Source: an archaeon (lineage in GTDB: Archaea; EX4484-52; B79-G9). Taken from it: a stretch of 41,055 nt of DNA. The notes under the pieces are model-generated. The model ran no database searches. It was not told the origin of the DNA and saw only the letters and a program-made list of their open reading frames with translations. Below are positions 392-19,434 of the stretch, one piece after another (position 1 is the first letter of the stretch; every line of letters begins with the position of its first letter). The stretch covers positions 1-41,055 of the forward strand of contig JBDRKP010000039.1 in the NCBI GenBank assembly GCA_043813875.1, in the 5' to 3' direction. The translations under genes were made by a program, and so were the position numbers.

Positions 392-492
392 GCCCCGGTA
401 GCTCAGCAGGTAGAGCGCATGGCTGTTAACCATGTTGTCGCAGGTTCGAGAAATCAAACACAAAAATTGATTAGAAAATCCTGCCCGGGGCG
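392..492 (+). tRNA. tRNA-Asn(GTT) with a 28-nt intron (451-478) at position 59/60 in the T-loop
   Basis: Acceptor stem GCCCCGG/CCGGGGC, D-stem GCTC/GAGC, anticodon arm CATGG-CTGTTAA-CCATG, T-stem GCAGG/CCTGC. The insert forms a bulge-helix-bulge motif; its removal restores the loop TTCGAGT. CCA is not encoded. Confidence 0.93.
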
Positions 493-562: not shown

Positions 563-1480
563 ATGGAAACACATTATCTGACAAACGAACTGCGGGAAGA
601 ACTCAAAAAACCCATAGGAACCGCAATAATCGGCAAAGAAGAGGACGTAAAACAAAGGTTCAACAACATCATAAAAACAATACCTCACAAAAAACTCATA
701 TCAGTAGGCGATGTGACCTCAAGACTATTCGACGCAGACATAAAGATCTTCGACGGAAGGATCCTAAGAAACATACACGTAGATACAATAAAACCGACAA
801 TGACAGCGCTCAATCCACCGGCATCAATCGACAAAGGCATCTGGGATGTATTAAGACACGCCCTGAAATGCAACAAAAAAGAAAAGATCATGATAGACGG
901 CGAAGAAGACCTCATCGTCCTGCCGTTGATTCTTCTGTGCGACACAGACACAATAATCGTCTACGGCCTCCCCCACCAGGGCATAGGCTACGTCATCCCG
1001 GACAAAAATACAAAATCCAAAGCAGAATCGATACTCCAAAAAATGCGCACCCAAAAATTCAAAAAAATAGTAGTCGGCGGCACATTCGACCATCTCCATG
1101 ACGGCCACAGGTATCTCTTGAGGATGTCAAAATATTACGCAGAAAAGACATTCATAGGAATAACATCAGATGACATGGCAAGAAAAAAGCCCCATCCCGA
1201 AAAGATAGAGTCATACGAGACAAGGAAAAAATCAGTTGAAGATTGCGCAAAAAAAATCAACCTCAACTACGAGACAATAGAGATAGACGACATCTACGGC
1301 CCCGCTGCAGTTGACAAAGAACTGGACTCCATCATACTGACAGAAGAGACAATCAAAAACGGCATATTAGTAAACAAAAAAAGAAAACAAAATGGACTGA
1401 AAGGACTCAACTACATCATCCTCCCATACATCCTTGGCCCCGGCAGAACAAAAATAGACAGCACCAGCTTCAGAAAATAA
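563..1480 (+). CDS. Fused GTP-dependent dephospho-CoA kinase (DUF359) + phosphopantetheine adenylyltransferase
   Basis: N-half has ISVGDVTS, IDGEEDL and YGLP motifs (DUF359); C-half has VVGGTFDHLHDGH (HxGH), DIYGP and a terminal STSFR as in archaeal PPAT. Confidence 0.88.
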   Translation: METHYLTNELREELKKPIGTAIIGKEEDVKQRFNNIIKTIPHKKLISVGDVTSRLFDADIKIFDGRILRNIHVDTIKPTMTALNPPASIDKGIWDVLRHALKCNKKEKIMIDGEEDLIVLPLILLCDTDTIIVYGLPHQGIGYVIPDKNTKSKAESILQKMRTQKFKKIVVGGTFDHLHDGHRYLLRMSKYYAEKTFIGITSDDMARKKPHPEKIESYETRKKSVEDCAKKINLNYETIEIDDIYGPAAVDKELDSIILTEETIKNGILVNKKRKQNGLKGLNYIILPYILGPGRTKIDSTSFRK

Positions 1481-1527: not shown

Positions 1528-1854
1528 ATGAACAAAAAAATACTCATTGTTGCCCTATCAATAATCTTAGCTATCTTACTAATCTTTCTCGCCTTTAATA
1601 ACATGAATTCAGATAAAACCGGTTGCAATTGGAAACCGCCAAAAGGATACATCGGTCCCTGCCCGATGAATGCTGGCTGGTACTTCGATGGAAGAGGATG
1701 CGTTTCCTTGGGTGCATGCGTTGACGAAAAAAACTATGAACTTGTAGAAAAAGGAATCCCATTCAAAACAGCACAAGAATGTATCGCTGCATGTACAATA
1801 AAAAATCCGACAAACTCAAATCCTAGAAAGCTTCTCCCACTTCTTGAGCTTTAA
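1528..1854 (+). CDS. Membrane-anchored/exported protein with a Kunitz/BPTI-like six-cysteine domain
   Basis: N-terminal hydrophobic helix, then C..KP..GPC..WYFD..C..GAC..F.T.QEC..C. TATA-like TTTATA about 25 nt upstream. The 3' end overlaps the convergent gene by 39 nt. Confidence 0.65.
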   Translation: MNKKILIVALSIILAILLIFLAFNNMNSDKTGCNWKPPKGYIGPCPMNAGWYFDGRGCVSLGACVDEKNYELVEKGIPFKTAQECIAACTIKNPTNSNPRKLLPLLEL

Positions 1855-3117
1855 GACACCCGAAAGCGTCCCGCCTTTCTTTATCTCCCCACGGATACGA
1901 TTCTCATTTTCAAACACACTCATCGCGCGATTAGCAACCTCAACCGCATCCTTCCTCGGAACAACAACAACCCCATTATCATCCCCGACAATATAATCAC
2001 CATCATTCACAACCTGCTCACCACAATTCACGCGAACGCCTATCTCACCAAACCCCTTGGCCTCCCCTGCATTCGGCCTGACATACCTAGCAAATGCAGA
2101 GAATTCAAGACCCCTAATCTCATCGATATCCCTGATAGTCCCATCGATAACCACACCGGCAATCCCACGATTGACAGCGCTATGACTCGCAAGCTCACCC
2201 CAAAGCGCAACATCCCCCCCATTCGCATCAATCACAATGACATCCCCCACTTTAGCCACATCAATCGCCTCGACAGGCTTCGACCAGTCCCCGTTCATCG
2301 CCCTGACAGTAACCGCACGCCCCACCATCTTTCGGCCCGGCGTCAGCGCAACAATACCCTTCATCGCCCCAAGCCCATGCATCGCATCGCTGATATTCGG
2401 CGTCGAGACCTTCGAAAGTATCCCAAAAACCTCGTCCTCCCTGTGAGCGCGCCTGTCAGCCTTCAGAGAAGCGCCAGCAATAGCCGCAAACACCCGGTCT
2501 ATAGCCACCCCGACATCAGCCTGCTTCGTGATTGCGCTCCCGATAATCAGTATATCCGCCCCGTTCTCACATGCAAGAGCAACATTATCCTCATCCAGAC
2601 CCCCTGCGACAGCAAGCGGTATGTTCACCGCATCCCGAAGCAGAGCAAGCCTCTCATCAATGACCTGTCCCTTCATCTGCTCATCAATGCTCAGGTGAAA
2701 AACAACATAATGCACACCCATCCGAGCGATTTCCACAGCCCTCTCAATCACCCTCTCCTTTGGAACCCCCAGCATATCGATCATTATCTTGGTCCCGTAC
2801 CTCTCCGCCTCCTTCACAGCATCAACAATAGTAGAATCATCAGACACCCCAAGAAGGATGACAACATCAGCACCGGCCTTAGCCGCAATCTCTACCTCGA
2901 CCGCTCCCGTATCGACAGTCTTCATATCAGCGACAATCGTATTTTTCGGAAAAGCGCGCCGGAACTTCCTCACAGCATCAAGACCCTCCGCCTTGATAAG
3001 CGGCGTCCCGACCTCAATCCAGTCAACACCCTTATCGACACAAATCTTCGCAACCTTCATGGCCCTCTCAAAATCAACAAAATCAAGCGCCACCTGAACA
3101 ATCGGCTTATCATCCAT
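1816..3117 (-). CDS. 3-hexulose-6-phosphate synthase fused to an RraA/HMG-aldolase-family domain
   Basis: QVALD, WIEVGTPL and VADMKTVDTG motifs (HPS); C-terminal STPNISDAM, WGELA and GVVIDGTIRD motifs (RraA family). Start placed at ATG 3117, which follows GGTGA and overlaps the upstream stop. Confidence 0.88.
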   Translation of the reverse strand: MDDKPIVQVALDFVDFERAMKVAKICVDKGVDWIEVGTPLIKAEGLDAVRKFRRAFPKNTIVADMKTVDTGAVEVEIAAKAGADVVILLGVSDDSTIVDAVKEAERYGTKIMIDMLGVPKERVIERAVEIARMGVHYVVFHLSIDEQMKGQVIDERLALLRDAVNIPLAVAGGLDEDNVALACENGADILIIGSAITKQADVGVAIDRVFAAIAGASLKADRRAHREDEVFGILSKVSTPNISDAMHGLGAMKGIVALTPGRKMVGRAVTVRAMNGDWSKPVEAIDVAKVGDVIVIDANGGDVALWGELASHSAVNRGIAGVVIDGTIRDIDEIRGLEFSAFARYVRPNAGEAKGFGEIGVRVNCGEQVVNDGDYIVGDDNGVVVVPRKDAVEVANRAMSVFENENRIRGEIKKGGTLSGVLKLKKWEKLSRI

Positions 3118-3886
3118 CCATATCACCACACGCAATAACATCAAGCCTCTCTTTCATAAAAAGAAGCACAGAAGAAAGATTCTTCCCATTATCGAACCCA
3201 TCGAGAATATCACGCAGCTCGGACTCATCAAGACCCTTCATCCTCTCAACCTCATCGCACAGACGAGGATAGCACCGGACAATATTATCGACTATAGTGA
3301 CATCAGCTGCCCGGGCGCTCCTAGAAAACGGCGACAAATCGACTGTGACGACCTTCTTTCCCATCCGGCAAAGCGCCTCTGTCCTGTCCCCATCCTCAAG
3401 CGGGACAAGCACGACATCAGCAGTGAATATGCCAGCCGGACTCACCTTCCCGCGTTCATGCAGAAGACCGGGGATGCGTTCCGTTGCATCACCACCTACA
3501 CCAAGCACTGCTGATTCAGCGCCCGCATCAATAAGAATCTTCTCGATAACCTTCTCCCTCTTACTGTTCCGGTAAAACAGATTAACCTCAAGGGGGCAGT
3601 CAAGAAGGCGTGAAAGCCTGACAGACTCAGCCGCAACCAGAGCCGCCGCATTTCCGTTGACCGAGATGACCGGCTTCCTTGCAAGAAGAAGCATGGCAGC
3701 TGCTGCACGTATAGCAGAAAGCGCAGCATCCCCGGTAGCCTCGCCGATAATATAATCAAACGCCTCGCCCCTCCCCTGCGCAATAAGTCCCTCCGGGACG
3801 ACAGCCCCGTTCCTGAATCCCAGGACCAGCCTTTCGCGTATCATAAGCGATTCATATCTCGGATGCGACTTAGGGATGGTAGTCAT
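3110..3886 (-). CDS. 4-phosphopantoate--beta-alanine ligase (phosphopantothenate synthetase, PPS)
   Basis: IPKSHPRYESL, GRGEAFDY, ISVNGN, LEVNLFY, VPLEDGDR and IVDNIVR motifs. Confidence 0.93.
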   Translation of the reverse strand: MTTIPKSHPRYESLMIRERLVLGFRNGAVVPEGLIAQGRGEAFDYIIGEATGDAALSAIRAAAAMLLLARKPVISVNGNAAALVAAESVRLSRLLDCPLEVNLFYRNSKREKVIEKILIDAGAESAVLGVGGDATERIPGLLHERGKVSPAGIFTADVVLVPLEDGDRTEALCRMGKKVVTVDLSPFSRSARAADVTIVDNIVRCYPRLCDEVERMKGLDESELRDILDGFDNGKNLSSVLLFMKERLDVIACGDMDG

Positions 3887-4758
3887 AATATCAGTCCAGG
3901 CTTCCTGTAGCCAACCTTCGTCTCAAAAACATAGTTGGCATCATTTAATTCGCGAAGCACATTTTTATTCATATCATCTAAAAGAAACACAAATCCGCTC
4001 TCACCAAGCATAGTCTGCGAAGCACGGCATCCCGGGATTGCATTAAGCCGCAAAAGAACCCTCCTGAGCCTTTCAGTAAGGAATCCTGCCTTCCCTGCAA
4101 ATTCAATAGAACATGCCATAAAATTATCAAACGTAGGATCAAAGAAAAGCTTCTCCAAAATCACATCAGCAATCCTGTTCAACTCCACGTATCCTTCACC
4201 GCTGATGACCTTTTTCGTATCAACGGCACCGAACGAAAAACATATCAGATGAACCGCATCACTCTTGATATTCTCAATCAGAGAACGTCCAGGCGCACCC
4301 TCCCTCTTCCTCATCTCGATGCCGCCGACAAGCATAGGCGAGACATCCCCTAGACCCGTAGCGCACTCAATTTCAGCAGCATGCGCAACCCCCCCGACCT
4401 CACCAAGCGACATGCCCAAAGAATATATCTCATTAAGACACAATCCCGCTCCCACGGCACACGCACCCGAAACACCGAACCCGGCACCAAGAGGCATCTT
4501 CGTAGTATGCCGGAAAATGACCTTCCCATGTGAATCAGGCGCCATCCTCTTCAGCACAGCAAAAGACGGGGCAAAATCCATCATATTGCCATTGAAATAT
4601 ACCAAAGAACCGGAACCGGGAACAGTTTCAACCTCGGTCACCACACCTTCATCTATGACAATGCCCGCCCCCCTGGAACCGGAATCAAGCGGATCATCAT
4701 GCATGCATACCCGAAAGATAGTCGAGATATGCCCGGGACAGTAAGCCCTGACCTTCAT
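3883..4758 (-). CDS. Pantoate kinase (PoK, GHMP kinase family)
   Basis: PGHIS, GSRGAG, PLGAGFGVSGA, AHAAEI..TGLGDV and REGAPG motifs; 4-nt overlap with PPS. Confidence 0.92.
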   Translation of the reverse strand: MKVRAYCPGHISTIFRVCMHDDPLDSGSRGAGIVIDEGVVTEVETVPGSGSLVYFNGNMMDFAPSFAVLKRMAPDSHGKVIFRHTTKMPLGAGFGVSGACAVGAGLCLNEIYSLGMSLGEVGGVAHAAEIECATGLGDVSPMLVGGIEMRKREGAPGRSLIENIKSDAVHLICFSFGAVDTKKVISGEGYVELNRIADVILEKLFFDPTFDNFMACSIEFAGKAGFLTERLRRVLLRLNAIPGCRASQTMLGESGFVFLLDDMNKNVLRELNDANYVFETKVGYRKPGLIL

Positions 4759-4767
4759 AGAATCACA

Positions 4768-5109
4768 TCACTTCAAACGATTACTCTCATCAACAAAAAC
4801 AATCTTTGGCACAATGTTTTTCGAATCCTTCTCATCATACATCGCAAAAGACGCGATTATGACCACATCACCAGTATAGCAGCGATGTGCAGCGCTCCCG
4901 TTGACAGAAATCTCCCCGCTCCGGCCTTCGATTGCATACGTCACAAACCGCTTCCCGTTAGTGACATTCCACACATGGACCTTCTCATAAGGCAGGATAT
5001 CCGCGAAAGTTAGCAGCTCCCGATCAATAGAGATACTTCCTTCATAATTCATATCCGTACCGGTAACAACAGCCCGGTGTATCTTGGATTTCAACATAAT
5101 CCTTTCCAT
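4768..5109 (-). CDS. panD: Pyruvoyl-dependent aspartate 1-decarboxylase
   Basis: [18 protein letters not shown] (Gly24-Ser25 autocleavage site), NGKRFVTY and NGSAAH motifs. Confidence 0.95.
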
Positions 5110-5282: not shown

Positions 5283-6455
5283 ATGAACATCGGTTGCCTA
5301 AGAGAGATAAAAAACAACGAGAACAGGGTCGGAATAACTCCCGACGGCGCAAAAAAGCTGACAGAATCAGGCCACAGCGTATTCATAGAACACGACGCAG
5401 GAAAAGAAGCCGGATACGAAGATGATGCCTACATATTCAAAGGCGCAAAGATACTCTCAAAAGAAGATATATACTCAACATCAGACATACTCGTGAAAGT
5501 AAAAGAACCGCTACCCGAAGAATACCCCCTTCTTGAACTCCTTAAAGGAAGAACTTTGTACACGTATCTCCACCTTGCTGCTGCAGAAAAAGAGCTTACA
5601 TCACGATTGCTGGAAAACAGCATAACATCCATCGCCTACGAGACCGTGATCGACGAAAACAACCGCCTGCCGCTTCTTGCCCCGATGAGCGAGATAGCAG
5701 GCGTGCTTGCGATACAGTACGGCGCCCAATACCTCCAGAAAAAATACAATGGCAAAGGAATAACACTCGGCATAATAACAGGGACACCGAACGCCAAAGT
5801 CGTAGTCGTTGGCGGCGGGACTGCCGGAGCGAAAGCAGCCATGACAGCAGCAGGCATCGGATCATGTGTGACCCTGTTCGAACTAAGCGACAGAAGAATC
5901 GAAGAGCTAAGAGACATGTTCAGGAACCATAGGAATGTCAAGATAATAAAATCAACGCCAGAAGAACTCAAAAAATACACCCAGGCAGCAGATCTCCTGA
6001 TAGGCGCAGTGCTTGTGCCAGGCAACAAGGCACCGACAGTAGTCACAGAAGACATGGTCCGCTCGATGCAGAAAGGATCAGTCATAATAGACATAGCAAT
6101 AGACCAGGGTGGCTGCATCTGGGGCTCAAGGCCGACATGCCACGACAATCCTATATTCGGGATAGACGGGAAGATATACTGCTGTGTGGCGAACATGCCC
6201 GGGCAGGTATCGCACCAGTCGACAAAAGCCCTGACAAGCGCCACGATAACATACCTGAAAAAAATGGCAGACAACGGAGTGATAGAACTGGCGATGAAAG
6301 ACAGGAACTTCATGCACGGCATAAACACAATAGCAGGTAGACTCACAAACAAAGCCGTAGCAGAGGCGCTATCACTCGAATACACCCCGACAGAAGATGT
6401 CTTAAGCGAAGCATTGATAGTGCGCGAAAGAACCAGAAACACCAAAATAGATTAA
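5283..6455 (+). CDS. ald: Alanine dehydrogenase (bacterial AlaDh/PNT type)
   Basis: EIKNNENRV, KVKEP, YLHLAA, LLAPMSEIAG, DIAIDQGGC and VANMPG motifs. Confidence 0.93.
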   Translation: MNIGCLREIKNNENRVGITPDGAKKLTESGHSVFIEHDAGKEAGYEDDAYIFKGAKILSKEDIYSTSDILVKVKEPLPEEYPLLELLKGRTLYTYLHLAAAEKELTSRLLENSITSIAYETVIDENNRLPLLAPMSEIAGVLAIQYGAQYLQKKYNGKGITLGIITGTPNAKVVVVGGGTAGAKAAMTAAGIGSCVTLFELSDRRIEELRDMFRNHRNVKIIKSTPEELKKYTQAADLLIGAVLVPGNKAPTVVTEDMVRSMQKGSVIIDIAIDQGGCIWGSRPTCHDNPIFGIDGKIYCCVANMPGQVSHQSTKALTSATITYLKKMADNGVIELAMKDRNFMHGINTIAGRLTNKAVAEALSLEYTPTEDVLSEALIVRERTRNTKID

Positions 6456-9576: not shown

Positions 9577-12500
9577 TTAGTCCTTCTTCTCATCCTCATC
9601 CATCTCAGAAACCGCCTTCTTCAGCCTCTCGATGGCCTCCCTGAGTTCTCCATCCCCTGAATTGCTTTCCTCCTTTTTCTCAAAAGAAACCTCTGGTTTT
9701 CCGTCATTTTGGCGCACCATCTTGTTCAAAGAATCATCAGCTCTCTCCTGAGGCTGGCCCTTCCTCATCATCCGCCTCAGCCTTTCTACAAAGAGCATCA
9801 ACTTACTGTTTTCAAGCTTCTCCCTCATGAAATCAGCCGTAGACTTATTCAAAGCGCGCTCCATAGCCTGCATCTTCGAAACATCCTTACGCCTTTCTTG
9901 CCTCTCATGTTTAAGGCGCTTAAACCCGCTGACACTCCCTTTCTTCAACACAGCCATATACTCCTCAATCTCTGCAATCTCGCTTCTCGTCTTCATCAGC
10001 TTATCCTGCTCAGAAGTCATTATCCTGTTGAACACCTCCTCACTTATCTTGCGCATAAAATACTGCTTCTCAGTCGCTTTTTTCGTCTCCTCGATAATTC
10101 TTCGCTCCCTGTTAAGCCTGATAAGAGCATCCTTCAGCTTGAAATAAGGAAGAATTATTTCAAAAATCAGATAAACCGAGAAAGAAAGCATTGCTAAGAA
10201 CAATAAAATCATCCACTTATTATCAACCACAAATTTCTCGGCTTTGATATAGAAAAGTGAAGATAGAATAGATTCTGTATTCATTTGCAATGGAGAAATA
10301 ACATCATTCAGTCCGGAAATATCATCATTCTCAATCGCATTTTCTCCTGAAGAAATCAACCTTTCAGCCTCCCTCAATTTAATCTTCAATTGAACAACAT
10401 CAAAACCATCCGACTCATACATTTCAATCTCGGCCTTAATATCATTCACAATATTCCTTAATCTCTCCAGTGCCAATACATTCTGATTTGTGAGAACTAG
10501 TAACCGGATTGTTTTCAATTTCTCCTGAGAACCACCCACAAGCAGGATGCCTATATTATACTCACCCTCAGATTCATTCAAAGGAACATGAACGCTTATA
10601 GGAAAATCAAAAGCATTCCCGGCAGGCAACACAAACTCATCATCCAGAGAAACAGCACAACATTCCTTTGAAATCCTTGAGTTTACAACCAGCGGTTTTT
10701 CACCTATATTTTCTACATATCCATAGAACGTAATATTAAAGCCACTATAAACTTCAATATCAGTATCTTTCAGCGTAAATTCAAAAGCCTCGCGTGGCAT
10801 CGCCACCGAACCAGGCTTGCTTTCACCCCCGGTTTCACTCGCATTACCGATAACAATATCCACCTCACCTGAACCGCCGCCAGCGCCAGAATCAGAAGGA
10901 CCTGAAGATAACACCGGTTCGAGAGTCGTAAGAAGCACCTGGCTGAATCCGCCATTCTTTGAACTGTCTATCGCATCAAACCCAAACCCGAATGACGGAT
11001 TTTCAACTGGTGAAGGTGCAAGAAAATCATCCATGTATACATACATATTAGAAGTGACCCGCTCAAGCTCATATACTGTAGATATATAAGTAGCAGTGAC
11101 CCTGGCATCCGTCACGCCTTCACCCCTCTTATTTGAGACAGTCACATTTATCGGCACAATATTTCCGGGCTTAAAGTAATCCCCATATGAAAAAGTCGTT
11201 ACTTTTGTAACGAGAATATTAGATACAGTAAAATTCAGAGAATTAATACCGCTATTACCGTTCTTCAAAACAGATGCATTGACAGTGTAGGTTGCGTCAG
11301 TACTATAAATTACCGGCATATCAGTACCCAGTATCTCCCTGTAAGAACTGCTCTTGATTTCATCATCAACAAGATACACCAAAGAAGAAGAATCATTCAG
11401 GATGAGAGTCAGATTATATCCATCAACCGTCTTATTATTGACATTATTCGCAGCCACCGTGAAATATATGGTCTCTCCCTTGTTATACACAGCATGGTCT
11501 GTAGAAACCGAAACATCATACATGTCCGTGGCATTGAAAGTAAACGAGCAGTCGGAGTACGCCAGATTTCCAGAGACATCATAAGCATATATCTTGCAGG
11601 CATATTCACCAGTCTCATTGATGCCTGGGAAATCGAATTTATATAGTCCGGGGCTGACAATCTCAGCCGTATGATTTATAACAGCACCCATCGGATAATA
11701 AATCTCAAACGATACATTATCGATCAGCGAATTATCAGAAACATTTGCATATACCGGATTTACCTCATACAGATTAACAAGCTGATATTGAGCATAAGAC
11801 CCGGTGATATTAGGAGAAACAACATCCTCATCAGTTACATTCAGAATAATATTATCGCTATCCACGCCGCCCATAACCCCTGACTCGGCAATCAGGGTCA
11901 TATTACTCAAACCGATGCCTGAAGAATTGATAGTCCAGCTCATCTTACGGCCATAAGGGTAATCCTCAATATTTATATCCCCGACAGACACATTGAAATT
12001 CCCGTTTGTAAGATTAATCACCGAAAGATTCTCAATAGATAGCGATGAATTTATATCTAAAACATCACCACCCGCAGGAACAACAAACCAGGTTATATTA
12101 AATATTCGATTGACAGGCACAACAATAACAGCATCAGACCCAGAATACATCACATCGACAGCACCGAAATTCACAGAGAAATTCTCAAGAGAGGATACAG
12201 CACTTCCAGAATAAACAGTAACATTCACCGAATAATTCCCTGAGCGCGAAACATTGCTATAATCCAGTTCATAAAAATAAGTTCCATTAGAGCCGTCACC
12301 CTTATAGCTCAGTGTCCTGACATCAACCGCTCCCCGCGGCTTGCTGATGACCGCTTCAACCTTCCCGATAGTTGTAGCATTCCCGGACACATTTGCATAT
12401 ATAAAGAGATTATTGGTGACATTCAAAACAGTATCGGAAAAACCAATCAGAACAGACAGATTGAGTACATTGAATGCATGACCCCAAGGCAACCGTGCCA

Positions 12501-15500
12501 TATTCCCGGAAGTATCATTCGAAAATATATCAGTGACATTATAATTGCCGACCAGGACAGTCTGATTATATTTGAGTCTCCACAAACCCATATGATGACT
12601 CCCAATATCCAGATAGAATGACTGGTTTTCATACGTACCGTTCGGCATCAAGACAGGCGCCCATACACCGGAGATATTAAGATTATCACTCACCCAGACA
12701 CCCGCTGAAAAGCTCTCACCTATATAGACGCTACTTGGGCCATCCGCGAAAGGATTGATGATAGTTGGCCCTTCTGTATCCTTGACTTCCAAAGAGACAT
12801 TCAGGACAGACGAATTATATCTGGACATAGCATCTCTTGCGACAAGCGAAACAGTGAAATTACCGGCGCTTGTGACATTGACCGCGAGCGCAACACTTCT
12901 GCCCGACCCGGAAGCAATATCACCCAAAGTATCATTCAATTGCAGAACAGACCCGATACTCGTATAAATAACCACTCCATAAGCATCCCCCGTATTATTC
13001 CCCACGCGATAGACATTATCCAACGTGACATTCAAAGCAAACTCATCACTCTGGTTCACCACACAACTCAAAGCATCATTACACATAACAGAACTCAGAT
13101 TAAGATAGGGTGTCCGAATCAGCGTACTGTTTGAATAGACACGATCCGAAACCTTCAGATACCACGTGACATTAGAATCATTCAACGGATACAGAGCAGA
13201 GAGAGATGCAGAATAAAGAGATACAAGAGATCCGGTCGAATTACCTGAAACATTCATATACGCAACCCTGGAAGAGCCATCAACACCGGTACTGATACCG
13301 CACCCCTTGACCCCGTACGCACAGGCAAAGACAGAATTATTCAAAAAATAGACATCCTTTGAACTGTTCCATGGACTGTTCAGAGGTACATACACAGTCA
13401 GGTTTGGATAATTCAACGTCCTGTTAAAATCGATTGAGATATTAACTGATCTGTTCTGGTTCGCAGATATATAACTCGCCCCGCCAAGCGACACAAAAAA
13501 TCCGCCGCCTACGACAATAAACTCATCCTGATCCGAAGTGACATTCACATTGCCCAAAGCATCAATGGCATATACCAGAGATACCCTGTAAATCCCGGTC
13601 ATATTAGTATTATATAACGTAAAATTCCATCCATCATCCGAATAATTTCCATTAAGAGGCAAAAGAGAATAATTAATCGCACCATAAGGCGCATCAACCG
13701 TCGCGACGACACTGCTGACCAGTCTGTCACTCACATTGACCATAAATCTGACACTCTCATTCGTATACAGCCTCCTGTCAAGATAGAATGAATCATAAGC
13801 AACATCAAAAGCAGCATTATAGATAACCGGAGGCAGATTATCAACAACAACATCCAACGAACCATAGCTGGTCCAGCCAACAGTATCATTCACAGAAACA
13901 TTCAGCGTGTAATTTCCAGTATCCACGCCGTTGATTACAACAGTCCCCCGATAAACCTTCAAAGATGAAGAATAATTCAGCTTTACCCGACCAACATACT
14001 GCCTTGATGTATTCAACACATCAACAAACACAGAATCAACACCACTATATCCATCTGTAGCGTTGACCGAAACAAGGACATGACTGCCATCCTTCACAGC
14101 AGTTGCATTGACCCACGCCTTATTTATGATTGGCGCGCTATCGTCAACCACATACTTATACAACACAATCCTCATATTGCCAAAAGAATCATTTGCATAA
14201 AATATCATTTGTTTACTCCCTTCACTGACCCACCCCGGATTAAAAGAGACACCGGTAACAAAACTATTATTTGAACCCAGACCACTATCATACCAGCTGG
14301 AATTCACCCCGACACCCACATCCTCCACATAAGCAGTAATATTATCAAGAGACCTCAGATAGCTGCCATTCAAAAGAGAAAGAGATACATTCGGTGCAAC
14401 CGTATCAACAAAATACCTGATGACCGTATGATTCAGGTTGCCTAAAGAATCCTTAAGCCACAAATCAAGAGTCTTGTTCCCTCCCGAATCCCACGGGTCA
14501 AATCCCGCATTATCTGCAAAAGACTCATTGACAATAAACTCATTGTTATCGAACTTAAGCTCCCCGATACCCGCCCCGTCATCTGCCACATCAACAGTGA
14601 CATTCCCGTCCAGCTTCATACTCGACCCGTTGACAGGACTGATCGAAGCAATATACGGAGGCGTATCATCAACAAAATAAGACAACACCGTATAATTGAT
14701 GTTACCGGCAGCATCTGCCACCCAAAGATTAAGAGACCTATTCCCTCCGCCCGTCCAGCCGGGATTGAAATACACATTATCCGTTGCCGCCTTTTCCAGT
14801 CCGCTGCCATTGTCATACATCAATTGCGACACACCGGAAAGCGAATCATTCACATCAACCCTGATATCGGTGCTCGACTTCAAAAACGATCCATTTGGGG
14901 GACTTACAGAAACAAAATAAGGCGCAACAAAATCGATAGAATAATTCCTGCTCACAGTCACGGCATCACCGACATTATTAGTCGAATTCACATACACAGT
15001 ACAGACAGACACACCTTCATCTGAACAATAAGAACTCACAACAACAGAAAGGACACCATTGCAGGCAGTTCCGGCCCATGGACTATCATCCGAACCGCTG
15101 ATTCGATAGCCACAAGTCTGCCCCTCGGGGTCGATTTCAGAATGAGAAACACCAAAAGTACCATTAAACCAGGCATCCGCTAAAGGATCCAATATACTCA
15201 CAACCGGCGGCGAATTATCAACATTGAACGAAACATTAACAATATTCGAATTGCCTGCTTTATCACTGGCATTCACTTCAATCAAACAATCCGAATTTTT
15301 CGTATCAGAGCAATAAGCTGCTGTATCAAAACTAAATCCCAACAAACTCCCGCAATCTACCGAATAATATCCGCTGAAAGGATTCAGTCCGTCTTTATAT
15401 CTGTAATAACACAAATCAATATACTCATCTGTTGTTGAATAATTAACACCGATCTCGCCTTTAGTCCACTCATCGCTCAAAGGACTATTAACATAAATCA

Positions 15501-18500
15501 CAGGGCCATCAACATCAAAAACAAGCCATTCAGAATCAGTAGCATTATTGCCGATCCCATCATGAGCAGTAAAGTTGATTGAATAATTACCAGTGGCCCA
15601 CAAAGACGTATCAACCACCCATGAAAAATTACATTGAGAATCACTGACAAATTTTACAGAAGAATTTAAAACATCTGTAGAATTGTAAATATAATAACTG
15701 CAATTAGTCAGATTCCCGCCAACCCTCGCCGCCCGCAAATCAAGGCTAAAATCGCCGTTAATATACACTTCTCTTGGATAATGTATCACCACATTCGGCA
15801 AATTATTATCTACCTTAAAAAGAACCGAAACTGAACGGGTATATCCAAAAGAATCATTAGCATAAATAGTCAGATTATAATCTCCATCAGGATCATCCGA
15901 ACTGTTCCAGACTGCATCCCACCCAAAGCTATTATTCAAAGTTCCATTAGCGACAGTCACATTAATATCATACCATGACGCATTGACACCAATCCCCGAA
16001 TCAGAAACCTCACTTAAAATATCAACCATTCCCGAAACAACCTGCATGTTCGCTGGATTCTGGATCGTTATTAAAGGCGCCCCTCTATCAATGTTTATAA
16101 CACTGGTCTGATTAACAGGTCCGACATTACCAAGCGAGTCATTAGAAAGAAAAGAGAGATATTTACGGCACGTACTCCCGATAGCACATGTCACAGATAC
16201 CACATCAAGCTCATAATACGTTAGACACGTTGCAGAACCATAATCCCTCAGACAAGAACGCGTGACACTGCATCCCACGCCACCTCCGTCATCACATATC
16301 AACAGAACATCCTGATTCTCATTTACCCAGCCAGAATAAGTATAATTACTGCACGTATTTGGTCCGGTCATATCTACATAAAATCCATAGGTAGTATAAT
16401 TGATATTCCCAAGCGTATCATTCGACCACACATAGAGAGTATAATTACCGTCAACACTCCATCCCGGCACAAAACCTGTGCCAATAGAAACCGTCTTATT
16501 TGCTCCGCTCCCGTTGGAATACCACAATTTATCAACCCCTATACCAGCGCCATCTGTAGAACTTAAAACAACCATATCATCACTTTGGATAAAACTGCCG
16601 TTTGGCGGTGAGCTAACGCTGATAAGAGGGGGAGACTTATCCAGTACAAAACGATAATAAGTCCCATTGACATTCCCTGCAGAATCATTCGCCCAGACAT
16701 AAAGATCATTGCTCCCTTCAACACTCCAACCCGGATTGAAGCTGAAGAGAGAATCGAATGTATAATTCAATGACCCATTATTATACCACGACCAGGCAAC
16801 ACCATTTGAGTCATGGATCCCTATACTGATATTAGTCCTCAAAGAGACATAAGATCCGTTCTGAGGGCTCACAAAAGCAAATACAGGAGGCGTATTATCA
16901 ACAACATATGAATAATAGCTATAATTCACATTCCCAAGAGTATCATTAACCCATATAAACAGATATCTAGTGCCTTCAACAGACCACCCCGGATTAAAGC
17001 CGGCATTATCACTGAACGTCTTATTCATAACACTTCCGTTGTTATAGACAAACCCTGAAACACCGACGCCCGGATCATCTGCATCAATGGTGATATTAGA
17101 AACAGACCGTATCACAGACCCGGGCGAAGGCACAACCGAAACAATTGACGGCGCTGTATTATCAACAAAATAAGAATACACCGGATGATTGACATTTTGG
17201 GCCCCGTCAATCACCCATAGCAACAAGTCATTCCATCCCTCATCTATCCATCCCGGCACAAAAGGCACAAGATCATTAAATGTCCCGTTAAGAGCACCAG
17301 AACCATTATTATAATACCTGAAATATACTTCTTGATTGTCCGTCGTATTCAATACAAAAGAAAAGACAGACGTAACATTCGATTTATTCTCATAGGATAT
17401 GCTGAATATTCCCGGCAAAGTATTATCGACAACAAACCGATACATTTCATGATTCACATTTCCCGCAGAATCATTTGCCCAGACATCGATAATATGCTCT
17501 CCTTCACTTGTCCAGTTCGGATCAAAACTCGAATTCACATCAACAGAAATATTACCAAAACCATTATTAGCATTATACCAAAATGAAGATATACTATAAT
17601 CATCACTCACATTGACAGTCACATTATCAGCAGTCTTGAGGTAAGAATTATTCATCGGCTCGACCGGATCAAAAAAAGGCGCATTCACATCAACAATATA
17701 GGTAAGAGACGTATGATTCACATTACCGGCCTCATCATAAGCCCAAAGAGCAAGGTGTTTCTCACCTCCTGTTGACCACCCGGTCAGTATAGAGCCACTG
17801 CTTGAAAATATCGTCACATTACTATTCCCGGCATTATATGTCAAATGATGAAAACTCCAGTCATCAGTGATATTATAGTTGATTCCCACATTGACAGGAA
17901 CATAAGAATTATTCATCGGATAAAAATCATCAGGAACGTACTTAGGAGCCAGCCTGTCAAGAATAATATCATCAAATTTCACTTCCGTCTGGATATTCCC
18001 TACATAATCCTTCACACGTACATACACGGACCTGATACCATCACCTAAAGAGCATCCATAAAAAGGATCAGCGACATTAAAACTGGCAAAACTACCGCCA
18101 AAAACAATCCAATCAGTATAGTTAATGTTATCGCATGAAAATCCCATAAAATCAGGAACATTATATGTTGGCGGCACAATTGTAATATCCGGGAATGCCT
18201 TATTTGTATAAGGATCATTATTTTCGGCAACAACAAACAATGGCGGTTCCGGTGGCGTCTTATCGACAGTAAAAGTAAAATTATCAAACTTGCCCCAGTA
18301 TCCGGACTTATCCCGGCAATGAACATAGACAGTATAATTCCCATCATCAAGACCCGAAATATCAATCGTCCCATTTACAGCTTCAACTGCCTCATCAAAA
18401 CCCCCGTCATCCGGATTCAATGCAATTCCATTACCATATTCTGATTTCAGAGGCGAATCAGCACCATAGCTCTTGACAAAATACTCCGAAGCATTGATAT

Positions 18501-19434
18501 GAGAATAAAGCTCATTATCCTGACAGGTCGCATTAAGAACTGGATTCGAATTTGTGGTAGAAGGATTGATAACTGCACTTTTCGACATTGGAGGAGATAG
18601 ATAATTAACAACTCGCTGCATAACCGCATTTCTATCATTATATCCCAGCGCCTCAAATCCGAATGCAAAATAGACTAATTTATATGTGCCATTGTTTACC
18701 CTCATGGCAGCATTTAAAAGACTCGGAAAGTATCCATAAATCCACGAATTGGAGATTGAACTTCTCTGCTTCAGATAAAAAGAGTAATAAAATGACGGAT
18801 TTGCATATGAACCTGATGGCGCAATTTCTGATGGATATCTTTGATTATTCGCCCCCTCAGATGATATTATGCTTAAATCCATTAGACCTCCTGTAATGGG
18901 ATCATCATTTATACCGCGCGGTAGGGCTTCAAGAACATCCAGATAATAAGAATCATAATCATATAAAACATTATCAACTACAAAACTAGAGCCCATATAA
19001 TCACGATAAAACGTTTCATCACTAATATCATATCCAATATCCTGACCTGTCAAAAACAAAAATCCTCCGCCATCTAAATATTTTTTCAGATTAGTTCTGT
19101 CGTCCGAAGTCAAAGTATTACTATAAGTATTACCAGTAAACCATATAACAATGTCATAGTTCTTCATAGTATCATAACCAGGACCATTATACGGCGAAAA
19201 GAGAACTGACAGAACAATATCACAATCCCCCGTACCAATATCCGTATCACACGAATATCCAAGAATCTGAATAGCGCTCTTAAAATAAGATATATAATCA
19301 CCACCGATGTTCACATCATCGTCGACCAGAAGTATCTTCGGCTTCGGTGAATCAGCATGAACAGCGCCGATAAGTATAATAGAAACCATCAAAAATACAA
19401 TTAGAAACACAATCTTTCCTCGAGAATAAACCAT
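9577..19434 (-). CDS. Giant (3285 aa) membrane-anchored surface protein with about 20 Ig-like repeats
   Basis: Signal peptide; N-terminal alpha/beta domain (ILLVDDD, YDIVIWFTG, YLDGGGFLFLTGQDIG); repeats of about 90 aa ending xNDxxGN...VDxTxP; dense N-x-S/T sequons; Gly/Ser linker; coiled coil; one C-terminal TM helix; charged cytoplasmic tail. Confidence 0.85.
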   Translation of the reverse strand: MVYSRGKIVFLIVFLMVSIILIGAVHADSPKPKILLVDDDVNIGGDYISYFKSAIQILGYSCDTDIGTGDCDIVLSVLFSPYNGPGYDTMKNYDIVIWFTGNTYSNTLTSDDRTNLKKYLDGGGFLFLTGQDIGYDISDETFYRDYMGSSFVVDNVLYDYDSYYLDVLEALPRGINDDPITGGLMDLSIISSEGANNQRYPSEIAPSGSYANPSFYYSFYLKQRSSISNSWIYGYFPSLLNAAMRVNNGTYKLVYFAFGFEALGYNDRNAVMQRVVNYLSPPMSKSAVINPSTTNSNPVLNATCQDNELYSHINASEYFVKSYGADSPLKSEYGNGIALNPDDGGFDEAVEAVNGTIDISGLDDGNYTVYVHCRDKSGYWGKFDNFTFTVDKTPPEPPLFVVAENNDPYTNKAFPDITIVPPTYNVPDFMGFSCDNINYTDWIVFGGSFASFNVADPFYGCSLGDGIRSVYVRVKDYVGNIQTEVKFDDIILDRLAPKYVPDDFYPMNNSYVPVNVGINYNITDDWSFHHLTYNAGNSNVTIFSSSGSILTGWSTGGEKHLALWAYDEAGNVNHTSLTYIVDVNAPFFDPVEPMNNSYLKTADNVTVNVSDDYSISSFWYNANNGFGNISVDVNSSFDPNWTSEGEHIIDVWANDSAGNVNHEMYRFVVDNTLPGIFSISYENKSNVTSVFSFVLNTTDNQEVYFRYYNNGSGALNGTFNDLVPFVPGWIDEGWNDLLLWVIDGAQNVNHPVYSYFVDNTAPSIVSVVPSPGSVIRSVSNITIDADDPGVGVSGFVYNNGSVMNKTFSDNAGFNPGWSVEGTRYLFIWVNDTLGNVNYSYYSYVVDNTPPVFAFVSPQNGSYVSLRTNISIGIHDSNGVAWSWYNNGSLNYTFDSLFSFNPGWSVEGSNDLYVWANDSAGNVNGTYYRFVLDKSPPLISVSSPPNGSFIQSDDMVVLSSTDGAGIGVDKLWYSNGSGANKTVSIGTGFVPGWSVDGNYTLYVWSNDTLGNINYTTYGFYVDMTGPNTCSNYTYSGWVNENQDVLLICDDGGGVGCSVTRSCLRDYGSATCLTYYELDVVSVTCAIGSTCRKYLSFLSNDSLGNVGPVNQTSVINIDRGAPLITIQNPANMQVVSGMVDILSEVSDSGIGVNASWYDINVTVANGTLNNSFGWDAVWNSSDDPDGDYNLTIYANDSFGYTRSVSVLFKVDNNLPNVVIHYPREVYINGDFSLDLRAARVGGNLTNCSYYIYNSTDVLNSSVKFVSDSQCNFSWVVDTSLWATGNYSINFTAHDGIGNNATDSEWLVFDVDGPVIYVNSPLSDEWTKGEIGVNYSTTDEYIDLCYYRYKDGLNPFSGYYSVDCGSLLGFSFDTAAYCSDTKNSDCLIEVNASDKAGNSNIVNVSFNVDNSPPVVSILDPLADAWFNGTFGVSHSEIDPEGQTCGYRISGSDDSPWAGTACNGVLSVVVSSYCSDEGVSVCTVYVNSTNNVGDAVTVSRNYSIDFVAPYFVSVSPPNGSFLKSSTDIRVDVNDSLSGVSQLMYDNGSGLEKAATDNVYFNPGWTGGGNRSLNLWVADAAGNINYTVLSYFVDDTPPYIASISPVNGSSMKLDGNVTVDVADDGAGIGELKFDNNEFIVNESFADNAGFDPWDSGGNKTLDLWLKDSLGNLNHTVIRYFVDTVAPNVSLSLLNGSYLRSLDNITAYVEDVGVGVNSSWYDSGLGSNNSFVTGVSFNPGWVSEGSKQMIFYANDSFGNMRIVLYKYVVDDSAPIINKAWVNATAVKDGSHVLVSVNATDGYSGVDSVFVDVLNTSRQYVGRVKLNYSSSLKVYRGTVVINGVDTGNYTLNVSVNDTVGWTSYGSLDVVVDNLPPVIYNAAFDVAYDSFYLDRRLYTNESVRFMVNVSDRLVSSVVATVDAPYGAINYSLLPLNGNYSDDGWNFTLYNTNMTGIYRVSLVYAIDALGNVNVTSDQDEFIVVGGGFFVSLGGASYISANQNRSVNISIDFNRTLNYPNLTVYVPLNSPWNSSKDVYFLNNSVFACAYGVKGCGISTGVDGSSRVAYMNVSGNSTGSLVSLYSASLSALYPLNDSNVTWYLKVSDRVYSNSTLIRTPYLNLSSVMCNDALSCVVNQSDEFALNVTLDNVYRVGNNTGDAYGVVIYTSIGSVLQLNDTLGDIASGSGRSVALAVNVTSAGNFTVSLVARDAMSRYNSSVLNVSLEVKDTEGPTIINPFADGPSSVYIGESFSAGVWVSDNLNISGVWAPVLMPNGTYENQSFYLDIGSHHMGLWRLKYNQTVLVGNYNVTDIFSNDTSGNMARLPWGHAFNVLNLSVLIGFSDTVLNVTNNLFIYANVSGNATTIGKVEAVISKPRGAVDVRTLSYKGDGSNGTYFYELDYSNVSRSGNYSVNVTVYSGSAVSSLENFSVNFGAVDVMYSGSDAVIVVPVNRIFNITWFVVPAGGDVLDINSSLSIENLSVINLTNGNFNVSVGDINIEDYPYGRKMSWTINSSGIGLSNMTLIAESGVMGGVDSDNIILNVTDEDVVSPNITGSYAQYQLVNLYEVNPVYANVSDNSLIDNVSFEIYYPMGAVINHTAEIVSPGLYKFDFPGINETGEYACKIYAYDVSGNLAYSDCSFTFNATDMYDVSVSTDHAVYNKGETIYFTVAANNVNNKTVDGYNLTLILNDSSSLVYLVDDEIKSSSYREILGTDMPVIYSTDATYTVNASVLKNGNSGINSLNFTVSNILVTKVTTFSYGDYFKPGNIVPINVTVSNKRGEGVTDARVTATYISTVYELERVTSNMYVYMDDFLAPSPVENPSFGFGFDAIDSSKNGGFSQVLLTTLEPVLSSGPSDSGAGGGSGEVDIVIGNASETGGESKPGSVAMPREAFEFTLKDTDIEVYSGFNITFYGYVENIGEKPLVVNSRISKECCAVSLDDEFVLPAGNAFDFPISVHVPLNESEGEYNIGILLVGGSQEKLKTIRLLVLTNQNVLALERLRNIVNDIKAEIEMYESDGFDVVQLKIKLREAERLISSGENAIENDDISGLNDVISPLQMNTESILSSLFYIKAEKFVVDNKWMILLFLAMLSFSVYLIFEIILPYFKLKDALIRLNRERRIIEETKKATEKQYFMRKISEEVFNRIMTSEQDKLMKTRSEIAEIEEYMAVLKKGSVSGFKRLKHERQERRKDVSKMQAMERALNKSTADFMREKLENSKLMLFVERLRRMMRKGQPQERADDSLNKMVRQNDGKPEVSFEKKEESNSGDGELREAIERLKKAVSEMDEDEKKD

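Follow-up and report, generated by a model that had tools for sequence, protein, structure and literature searches.

A fused hexulose-6-phosphate synthase and RraA-type aldolase in an archaeal pantothenate operon: a probable non-homologous replacement for PanB

Coenzyme A (CoA) is essential, and many archaea that build it through pantoate kinase (PoK) plus phosphopantothenate synthetase (PPS) have no recognisable first enzyme of the pantoate route. Here we describe one candidate gene for this missing step, located in a 41,055-nucleotide stretch of archaeal DNA (GTDB lineage EX4484-52; B79-G9; contig JBDRKP010000039.1 of assembly GCA_043813875.1, positions 1 to 41,055, forward strand), the whole of which is called the window below. 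It encodes a protein in which 3-hexulose-6-phosphate synthase (hereafter HPS) is joined to an RraA domain, and an earlier interpretation made from the letters of this DNA alone (the sequence-only reading) had proposed that it replaces PanB, the ketopantoate hydroxymethyltransferase (KPHMT), in a folate-independent manner.

A pantothenate gene run without panB

The run and the two domains of its last gene are as follows.

4768..5109, minus strand: panD, pyruvoyl aspartate 1-decarboxylase of the bacterial type (PF02261, E 1.3e-45)
3883..4758, minus strand: pantoate kinase PoK, a GHMP kinase (NF040725, E 5.5e-46; NF041122, E 3.6e-41)
3110..3886, minus strand: phosphopantothenate synthetase PPS (PF02006, E 3.7e-66)
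1816..3117, minus strand: HPS-RraA fusion, 433 aa, PRK07028-like ("HPS-MenG") (NF005442, E 8.5e-169; PF00215 and PF03737)
2497..3099, minus strand: HPS domain of the fusion (PF00215; TIGR03128, 198.5 bits, cut-off 200)
1819..2436, minus strand: RraA / HMG-CHA aldolase-fold domain of the fusion, residues 228-433 (PF03737, E 1.3e-44; 3NOJ, E 1.3e-19)

The four minus-strand open reading frames (ORFs) are tightly packed, just as had been described, with a gap of 9 nt between panD and PoK and overlaps of 4 nt (PoK/PPS) and 8 nt (PPS/HPS-RraA). PanD, whose product is the beta-alanine supply, scores 135 bits against TIGR00223 (cut-off 106) and has K9, H11, G24-S25, R54 and Y58 all present, residues with roles in this enzyme. 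PPS reaches 342 bits against NF010324 (cut-off 227). PoK scores under both model cut-offs (380 for NF040725, and that of NF041122), and its homologues recur in equivalent operons of other genomes. No panB lies in the window, and the PanB family model PF02548 matches neither the fusion protein nor any part of the genome (91.5% complete) at E<=10; panB was not found in the five other genomes of the genus either (80-89% complete).

The fusion protein and its active sites

The fusion aligns to NF005442 (PRK07028) from end to end (positions 3-429 of 430) and has the same full-length two-domain build as HPS-MenG proteins ([quoted passage not shown], e.g. Mhun0647); its closest relatives are 76-77% identical. 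With 561.7 bits it does not reach the model cut-off of 593, but other clear family members also fall below it (567.5 and 591 bits), and the protein is therefore a close member of the wider family, outside the curated model. That the family was already known had been recognised at the outset, and HPS activity has indeed been measured for Mhun0647 of M. hungatei, at 0.21 vs 6.05 μmol/min/mg for a Fae-HPS (PMC5241800). In the literature searched, no function is assigned to its RraA half.

The predicted structure (pLDDT 91.5) has domains matching 3AJX and 9LJ9 (HPS) and 3NOJ (RraA). Aligned to the first two, the HPS domain is a TIM barrel with D12, E35, D64-x-K66, D69, D114, H141 and the phosphate-binding glycines in place. 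These residues are intact in 153-154 of 154 fusions, and E35, D64, K66, D69, D114 and H141 are kept in all of them; we take their roles to be those familiar from work on KGPDC and HPS. The domain falls marginally short of the TIGR03128 cut-off given above.

The RraA domain superposes on 3NOJ, an HMG/CHA aldolase, with a root-mean-square deviation of 2.1 Å over 206 columns. The intact G-x-x-R-D motif pointed out in the sequence-only reading is GTIRD at residues 326-330, and R329, D330, E405 and G307 are invariant in 154/154 fusions (K354 in 153). Of the 3NOJ residues, Arg123 stabilises the enolate, Asp124 and Glu199 are the metal ligands, and Lys147 and Asn71 are important for turnover (PMC5065237). 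R123, D124, E199, K147 and the G101-D102 loop of that enzyme correspond to R329, D330, E405, K354 and G307-E308 of the fusion, the match of E405 to Glu199 holding once a two-residue alignment gap is closed, so that the enolate-stabilising Arg (R329) and metal ligands (D330, E405) of an RraA-like class II aldolase are present.

The two differ in other respects: identity is 26%, the fusion's domain is joined to HPS, and, with alignment gaps closed, N71, H75 and T145 of 3NOJ are replaced by W278, V282 and E/D352, along with an invariant K280. The fusion-specific positions W278 (152/154), K280 (154/154), E/D352 (154/154) and V/I282 are conserved in none of 37 shorter RraA sequences, two of which turned out to be cut fusions. 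These positions would make the pocket more hydrophobic and give it an invariant acidic side chain, features that could accommodate a branched 2-oxo acid and a very small acceptor. The fused RraA domains group in a single clade, and the two domains are joined in all full-length members observed.

Two known RraA-type functions do not match. As an HMG/CHA aldolase proper (LigK/PcmE) the fusion scores 89.5 vs a cut-off of 304.5 bits (TIGR02798) and 99.6 vs 179 bits (NF006731), and its pocket also differs, W278 and V282 replacing N71 and H75; as an RraA regulator of RNase E it lies under the cut-offs too (61.2 vs 136 bits for NF006875, 35.9 vs 241 for TIGR02998). Searches for stand-alone RraA relatives listed only short proteins, mostly fusion fragments on short contigs, and an Atlas search returned generic HMG aldolase clusters only.

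Mutual exclusion with panB

Identical genome sets were searched with the RraA domain and with PF02548. Fusion-type matches have E<=1e-58 (frames of at least 364 aa where listed). Stand-alone RraA proteins, which match no better than 1e-34 and occur with or without panB, were for these reasons left out of the enzyme counts. Three samples were centred on a Nezhaarchaeales genome (phylum Thermoproteota), a Methanococcoides genome (phylum Halobacteriota) and a Thermococci genome (its phylum), group names that in part follow what we take to be the GTDB placement of the centre genome; the fourth was the order Desulfobacterales.

Thermoproteota sample (231 genomes): both genes 0, fusion only 10, panB only 112, neither 109
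Desulfobacterales (141 genomes): both genes 1, fusion only 8, panB only 125, neither 7
Halobacteriota sample (201 genomes): both genes 1, fusion only 153, panB only 42, neither 5
Thermococci phylum (101 genomes): both genes 0, fusion only 11, panB only 81, neither 9

The predicted anticorrelation thus took the form of near-complete exclusion in four separately sampled groups: both genes occur in 2/674 genomes vs about 55 expected if independent, with 182 genomes having the fusion only and 360 panB only. Among 50 further carriers, drawn from 80 carrier genomes, panB was found in one. Carriers still need pantoate, because the following enzymes are retained: PPS in 10/10 Thermoproteota carriers, and panC in all nine Desulfobacterales carriers (eight of which have no panB) and in 5/6 other bacterial carriers tested. 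Since several bacterial groups have the fusion in place of panB, the gap is not only archaeal as had been proposed, while the genomic evidence does support the fusion filling it.

In five small panB-bearing Halobacteriota genomes mcrA was not found (0/5), and in four small Halobacteriota genomes likewise without detected mcrA (L270-L273) panB comes after HMG-CoA reductase and closes an apparent mevalonate cluster.

Gene neighbourhoods across lineages

Among the best 80 of 578 GTDB loci, whose neighbourhoods were read, there are eight (L036, L037, L040, L042, L045, L072, L100, L101) in which the fusion has PoK, PPS, panE or an MfnA-type decarboxylase as a neighbour. In Thermoproteota the fusion is immediately upstream of panE in 10/10 carriers, eight of which place the pair inside a cluster of PoK, PPS, coaBC and a decarboxylase gene, and both Asgard loci have the order fusion-panE-MfnA. 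Twelve panB genomes of Thermoproteota (hand-selected, 11 because panB is near PPS; panB of L262 placed by coordinates) have operons of the order PoK-PPS-panE-panB or panE-panB, often with MfnA, coaBC and PPAT. The two genes therefore trade places beside panE, on opposite sides of it. All 11 carriers of the Thermococci phylum have PPS directly followed by the fusion. A metagenome scan gave 27 loci, with panC in 11 and a DUF2520 reductase, which we take to be the ketopantoate reductase PanG, in 10; the order is DUF2520-yjbQ-fusion facing panC-peptidase S58, and the linked loci form one clade with two members named Actinomycetota. At eight loci (L282, L284, L287, L289, L292, L295, L299, L303) the gene before panC encodes a DmpA-like peptidase S58, a possible source of beta-alanine where no panD is seen.

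The linkage expected by the sequence-only reading thus recurs on the fusion tree (FastTree, midpoint root, weak deep nodes) in no fewer than four separate clades, namely this genus, Thermoproteota with Asgard, a Thermococci-phylum group and an actinobacterial group, and the partners are non-homologous across clades: panE or DUF2520, PoK/PPS or panC, panD or an MfnA-type decarboxylase. In operon position as in panB exclusion, the fusion behaves as expected of the functional class of ketopantoate-forming enzymes.

Sixteen genomes have PPS but neither enzyme. Of the 11 that were read, none has panE within the stretch read, and in 10 PPS is immediately followed by a small membrane ORF. This ORF resembles the S component of an energy-coupling factor (ECF) transporter by features and fold (no Pfam or NCBIfam match), which fits salvage. 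It follows coaBC-PoK-PPS where relatives have panE-panB (L165-L172, L174, L175) and is a candidate archaeal pantoate transporter.

Pathway inventory and the source of hexulose-6-phosphate

The host genome has a single RraA domain, the fused one, and encodes ilvB-ilvN-ilvC-ilvD, the route to ketoisovalerate, as well as the isomerase PHI (hxlB) and coaBC. No true panE was found in it by phmmer, and weak Rossmann matches lie in longer or unrelated frames; IlvC would therefore have to reduce ketopantoate, as it does in place of panE in Corynebacterium and Thermotoga (PMC7883664). Serine hydroxymethyltransferase (SHMT) is present, so the host cell may still have pterin one-carbon chemistry. Two coaBC-like genes occur (contigs C67 and C30), one within a longer frame. 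With its branched-chain amino acid operon, SHMT and near-complete CoA pathway, this probable DPANN host is biosynthetically rich.

In Desulfobacterales hxlB was found in 9/9 carriers vs 0/32 non-carriers, and lies immediately upstream of the fusion in eight of the nine: a two-gene cassette for making hexulose-6-phosphate has come in where panB has disappeared. Four of the eight bacterial carriers without hxlB have yjbQ (UPF0047) adjoining or near the fusion (L051, L054, L063, L070), and YjbQ may replace PHI in such carriers; tests of three Omnitrophota genomes and one of Solincola turned up no hxlB. More widely, Omnitrophota, one planctomycete and the actinobacterial clade have yjbQ immediately upstream of the fusion (L051, L063, L070, L112, L282-L301).

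The host has a second HPS, in a 994 aa aldehyde:ferredoxin oxidoreductase (AOR) fusion with two HPS domains (contig C64, 4560-7541; L035), also found at L010, L011, L016, L017 and L019. In 6/6 copies the first HPS domain retains D69 but no longer has D12 or the GG loop, whereas in the second the main site is intact and D69 is lost, a complementary decay that looks like a single-chain dimer with one active site. This protein could carry the bulk of the ribulose monophosphate (RuMP) flux, and its HPS may pass formaldehyde to the oxidoreductase.

Proposed role and alternatives

We infer the substrate and product of the RraA domain, the direction of flux and the hand-over of formaldehyde as follows. 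PHI would convert fructose-6-phosphate to hexulose-6-phosphate, from which the HPS domain would release ribulose-5-phosphate and formaldehyde; the RraA domain, as a metal-dependent class II 2-oxo-acid aldolase, would enolise 2-ketoisovalerate and join the formaldehyde to it, forming ketopantoate. Reduction of this to pantoate by PanE, a DUF2520 reductase or IlvC (the candidate in the host genome) would pull the aldol step, and PanD, PoK, PPS, CoaBC and PPAT as well as dephospho-CoA kinase (DPCK) would complete CoA.

PanB (EC 2.1.2.11, PF02548) would share its product and its 2-oxo acid with the fusion and occupies the slot beside panE in similar operons, but has a different fold and no homology to it. 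It uses methylene-tetrahydrofolate and is described as a metal-requiring class II aldolase (PMC4814558), whereas the donor proposed for the fusion is formaldehyde from a sugar phosphate. A class II aldolase, YfaU, is known to add formaldehyde to pyruvate (PMC7918591). The archaeal reverse RuMP pathway has Fae-HPS and HPS-PHI fusions in which HPS is likewise joined to a protein acting on its substrate or on the formaldehyde set free (PMC5241800; 9LJ9), there on tetrahydromethanopterin (H4MPT), while the partner in HPS-RraA would spend it on a vitamin precursor.

The reaction itself has a precedent. 2-Dehydropantoate aldolase (ketopantoaldolase, EC 4.1.2.12) forms ketopantoate from ketoisovalerate and formaldehyde and was described in older work as a folate-free, low-affinity activity of E. 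coli extracts; we know of no pathway gene for it. The fusion, unlike that activity, would be dedicated and supplied with formaldehyde.

Within the full texts searched (most subscription journals and supplements lay outside this scope) we found no published link of HPS-MenG or of an RraA protein to ketopantoate, and nothing that combines RraA, ketopantoate and aldolase. Term searches of GapMind 2026 (PMC13759103), a M. maripaludis RB-TnSeq preprint and PMC3087415 returned nothing on the ketopantoate step, and the Thermococcus pathway is listed with KPHMT, in passages that say nothing about archaea lacking it (Shimosaka et al., 2019; PMC6650551).

Three independent lines, namely the exclusion of panB, the adjacency to non-homologous pantothenate enzymes and the intact aldolase and HPS sites, lead us to regard the fusion as quite probably a non-homologous PanB replacement acting by formaldehyde aldol addition. 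Judged from the sequences, some role in ketopantoate supply is very likely, and the full aldol chemistry fed by the protein's own HPS domain would be likely. We lean moderately towards the stronger view that HPS-RraA is a dedicated sugar-to-ketoisovalerate hydroxymethyl transferase, passing C1 of fructose-6-phosphate as formaldehyde between its active sites, and the main pantoate route in carriers. True channelling of formaldehyde between the domains is a tentative idea that we would sooner doubt than adopt. Channelling and folate independence, both part of the sequence-only reading, are what we infer rather than observe, the latter because SHMT is still encoded.

Several observations weigh against the proposed role. 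No PoK, PPS, panE or MfnA gene lies within 8 kb of the fusion at 72 of the best 80 of 578 loci, and the methanogens and Archaeoglobi of the Halobacteriota are unlinked (0/30 loci, read to 1.5 kb). Three genomes hold both fusion and panB (G047, G377, G619). Related genomes are not independent, so the exclusion counts represent perhaps five to ten switches, not hundreds, and Fisher P values computed from them are too strong. The genus of the host has only weak Rossmann matches in place of a true panE, and hxlB was not found in 13/48 carriers, eight of them bacteria, although many are incomplete metagenome-assembled genomes. M. jannaschii has PPS but no PanB, and only 1/14 control genomes passed the fusion cut-off; therefore Methanococcales and Methanobacteriales may need another answer.

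The strongest of the alternatives, itself improbable, is that the RraA domain makes ketopantoate with a one-carbon unit from methylene-H4MPT, methylene-folate or free formaldehyde, HPS mopping up excess or serving pentose synthesis. The carriers without detected hxlB would agree with this, as would SHMT in the host, folD near the fusion at one locus (L067) and the low HPS activity of the M. hungatei protein. A slow HPS, however, suits flux on the scale of a vitamin, and a separate donor accounts poorly for domains that are never parted in full-length members and form one clade, or for the way hxlB tracks the fusion in Desulfobacterales.

Less probable still is that the fusion is an enzyme of the RuMP pathway only, for pentose supply or formaldehyde capture, its RraA domain doing something else altogether (as another aldolase, an oxaloacetate decarboxylase or an RNase regulator), while common descent would account for the operon position and the panB pattern. 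The measured HPS activity and the hxlB adjacency are compatible with plain RuMP, most loci read have no pantothenate neighbour, and the RraA fold is capable of other chemistry, as in the dehydratase/decarboxylase FlDet (PMC8563752). This reading nevertheless leaves unexplained why the fusion, in separate clades, adjoins pantothenate enzymes from three non-homologous pairs, why bacterial carriers have lost panB but kept panC and why panB and fusion are exchanged inside equivalent operons. The host also has a second HPS, on its AOR fusion.

Very improbable is the reverse direction, cleavage of ketopantoate or a related 4-hydroxy-2-oxo acid with HPS trapping the formaldehyde, to break down pantoate or to repair damage: either reaction can in principle be reversed and the HPS equilibrium favours formaldehyde capture, but the operons are biosynthetic (PoK, PPS, coaBC, panD or MfnA), carriers would be left without a ketopantoate source, and genomes without either enzyme mostly carry the transporter-like gene instead.

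Other features of the window

563..1480, plus strand: DPCK-PPAT, GTP-dependent dephospho-CoA kinase (DUF359) joined to phosphopantetheine adenylyltransferase (CTP_transf_like) (PF04019 and PF01467; NF001985 above cut-off)

This gene, which the sequence-only reading had counted as a neighbour of the run, is present, but on the opposite strand: it lies 336 bases past HPS-RraA with a 108 aa ORF in between. It shares the pathway with the operon and is a separate convergent unit. We set it aside because its adjacency to the fusion is not conserved, DPCK-PPAT not being found downstream of the fusion in the four same-genus loci with downstream DNA (L030, L031, L009, L021). Divergent from panD is a bacterial-type alanine dehydrogenase (5283-6455, plus strand), in the same position in L030 and L036; it scores above the alaDH equivalog cut-off, was encountered in this genus alone and was likewise set aside. 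A promoter and terminator scan gave matches at chance level only.

Further away, 9577-19434 (minus strand) encodes a protein of 3285 aa that contains bacterial Ig-like repeats and probably belongs to the cell surface. The start of an ORF that is truncated by the contig end (1-109, minus strand) resembles an IS200 transposase by eye, its 36 aa giving no Pfam match, with palindromic stretches upstream at 240-300. A tRNA-Asn(GUU)-like gene with a T-loop insert of about 28 nt was read by eye at 392-492 (plus strand) and was not called by ARAGORN or Rfam; it is probably the genuine gene, with a non-canonical intron, because ARAGORN finds no other tRNA-Asn in the genome.

Implications

Many methanogens, further archaea and some anaerobic bacteria seem to owe to the fusion the otherwise missing first step of their vitamin B5 and CoA synthesis, the one-carbon unit probably coming from sugar rather than folate. 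A function is thereby proposed for a domain long labelled "MenG" or "ribonuclease regulator", and the toxic by-product of the reverse RuMP pathway is linked to vitamin B5. If this is true, Methanosarcinales, Methanomicrobiales, anaerobic methanotrophic archaea (ANME), Archaeoglobi, many Thermoplasmata, some Asgard, Bathyarchaeia and DPANN archaea and several groups of anaerobic bacteria would need no pterin carrier and would build CoA out of a pentose-synthesis by-product. It would also offer a pterin-free pantothenate route for strain engineering and, in methanogens, a pathway step not common to folate-using bacteria.

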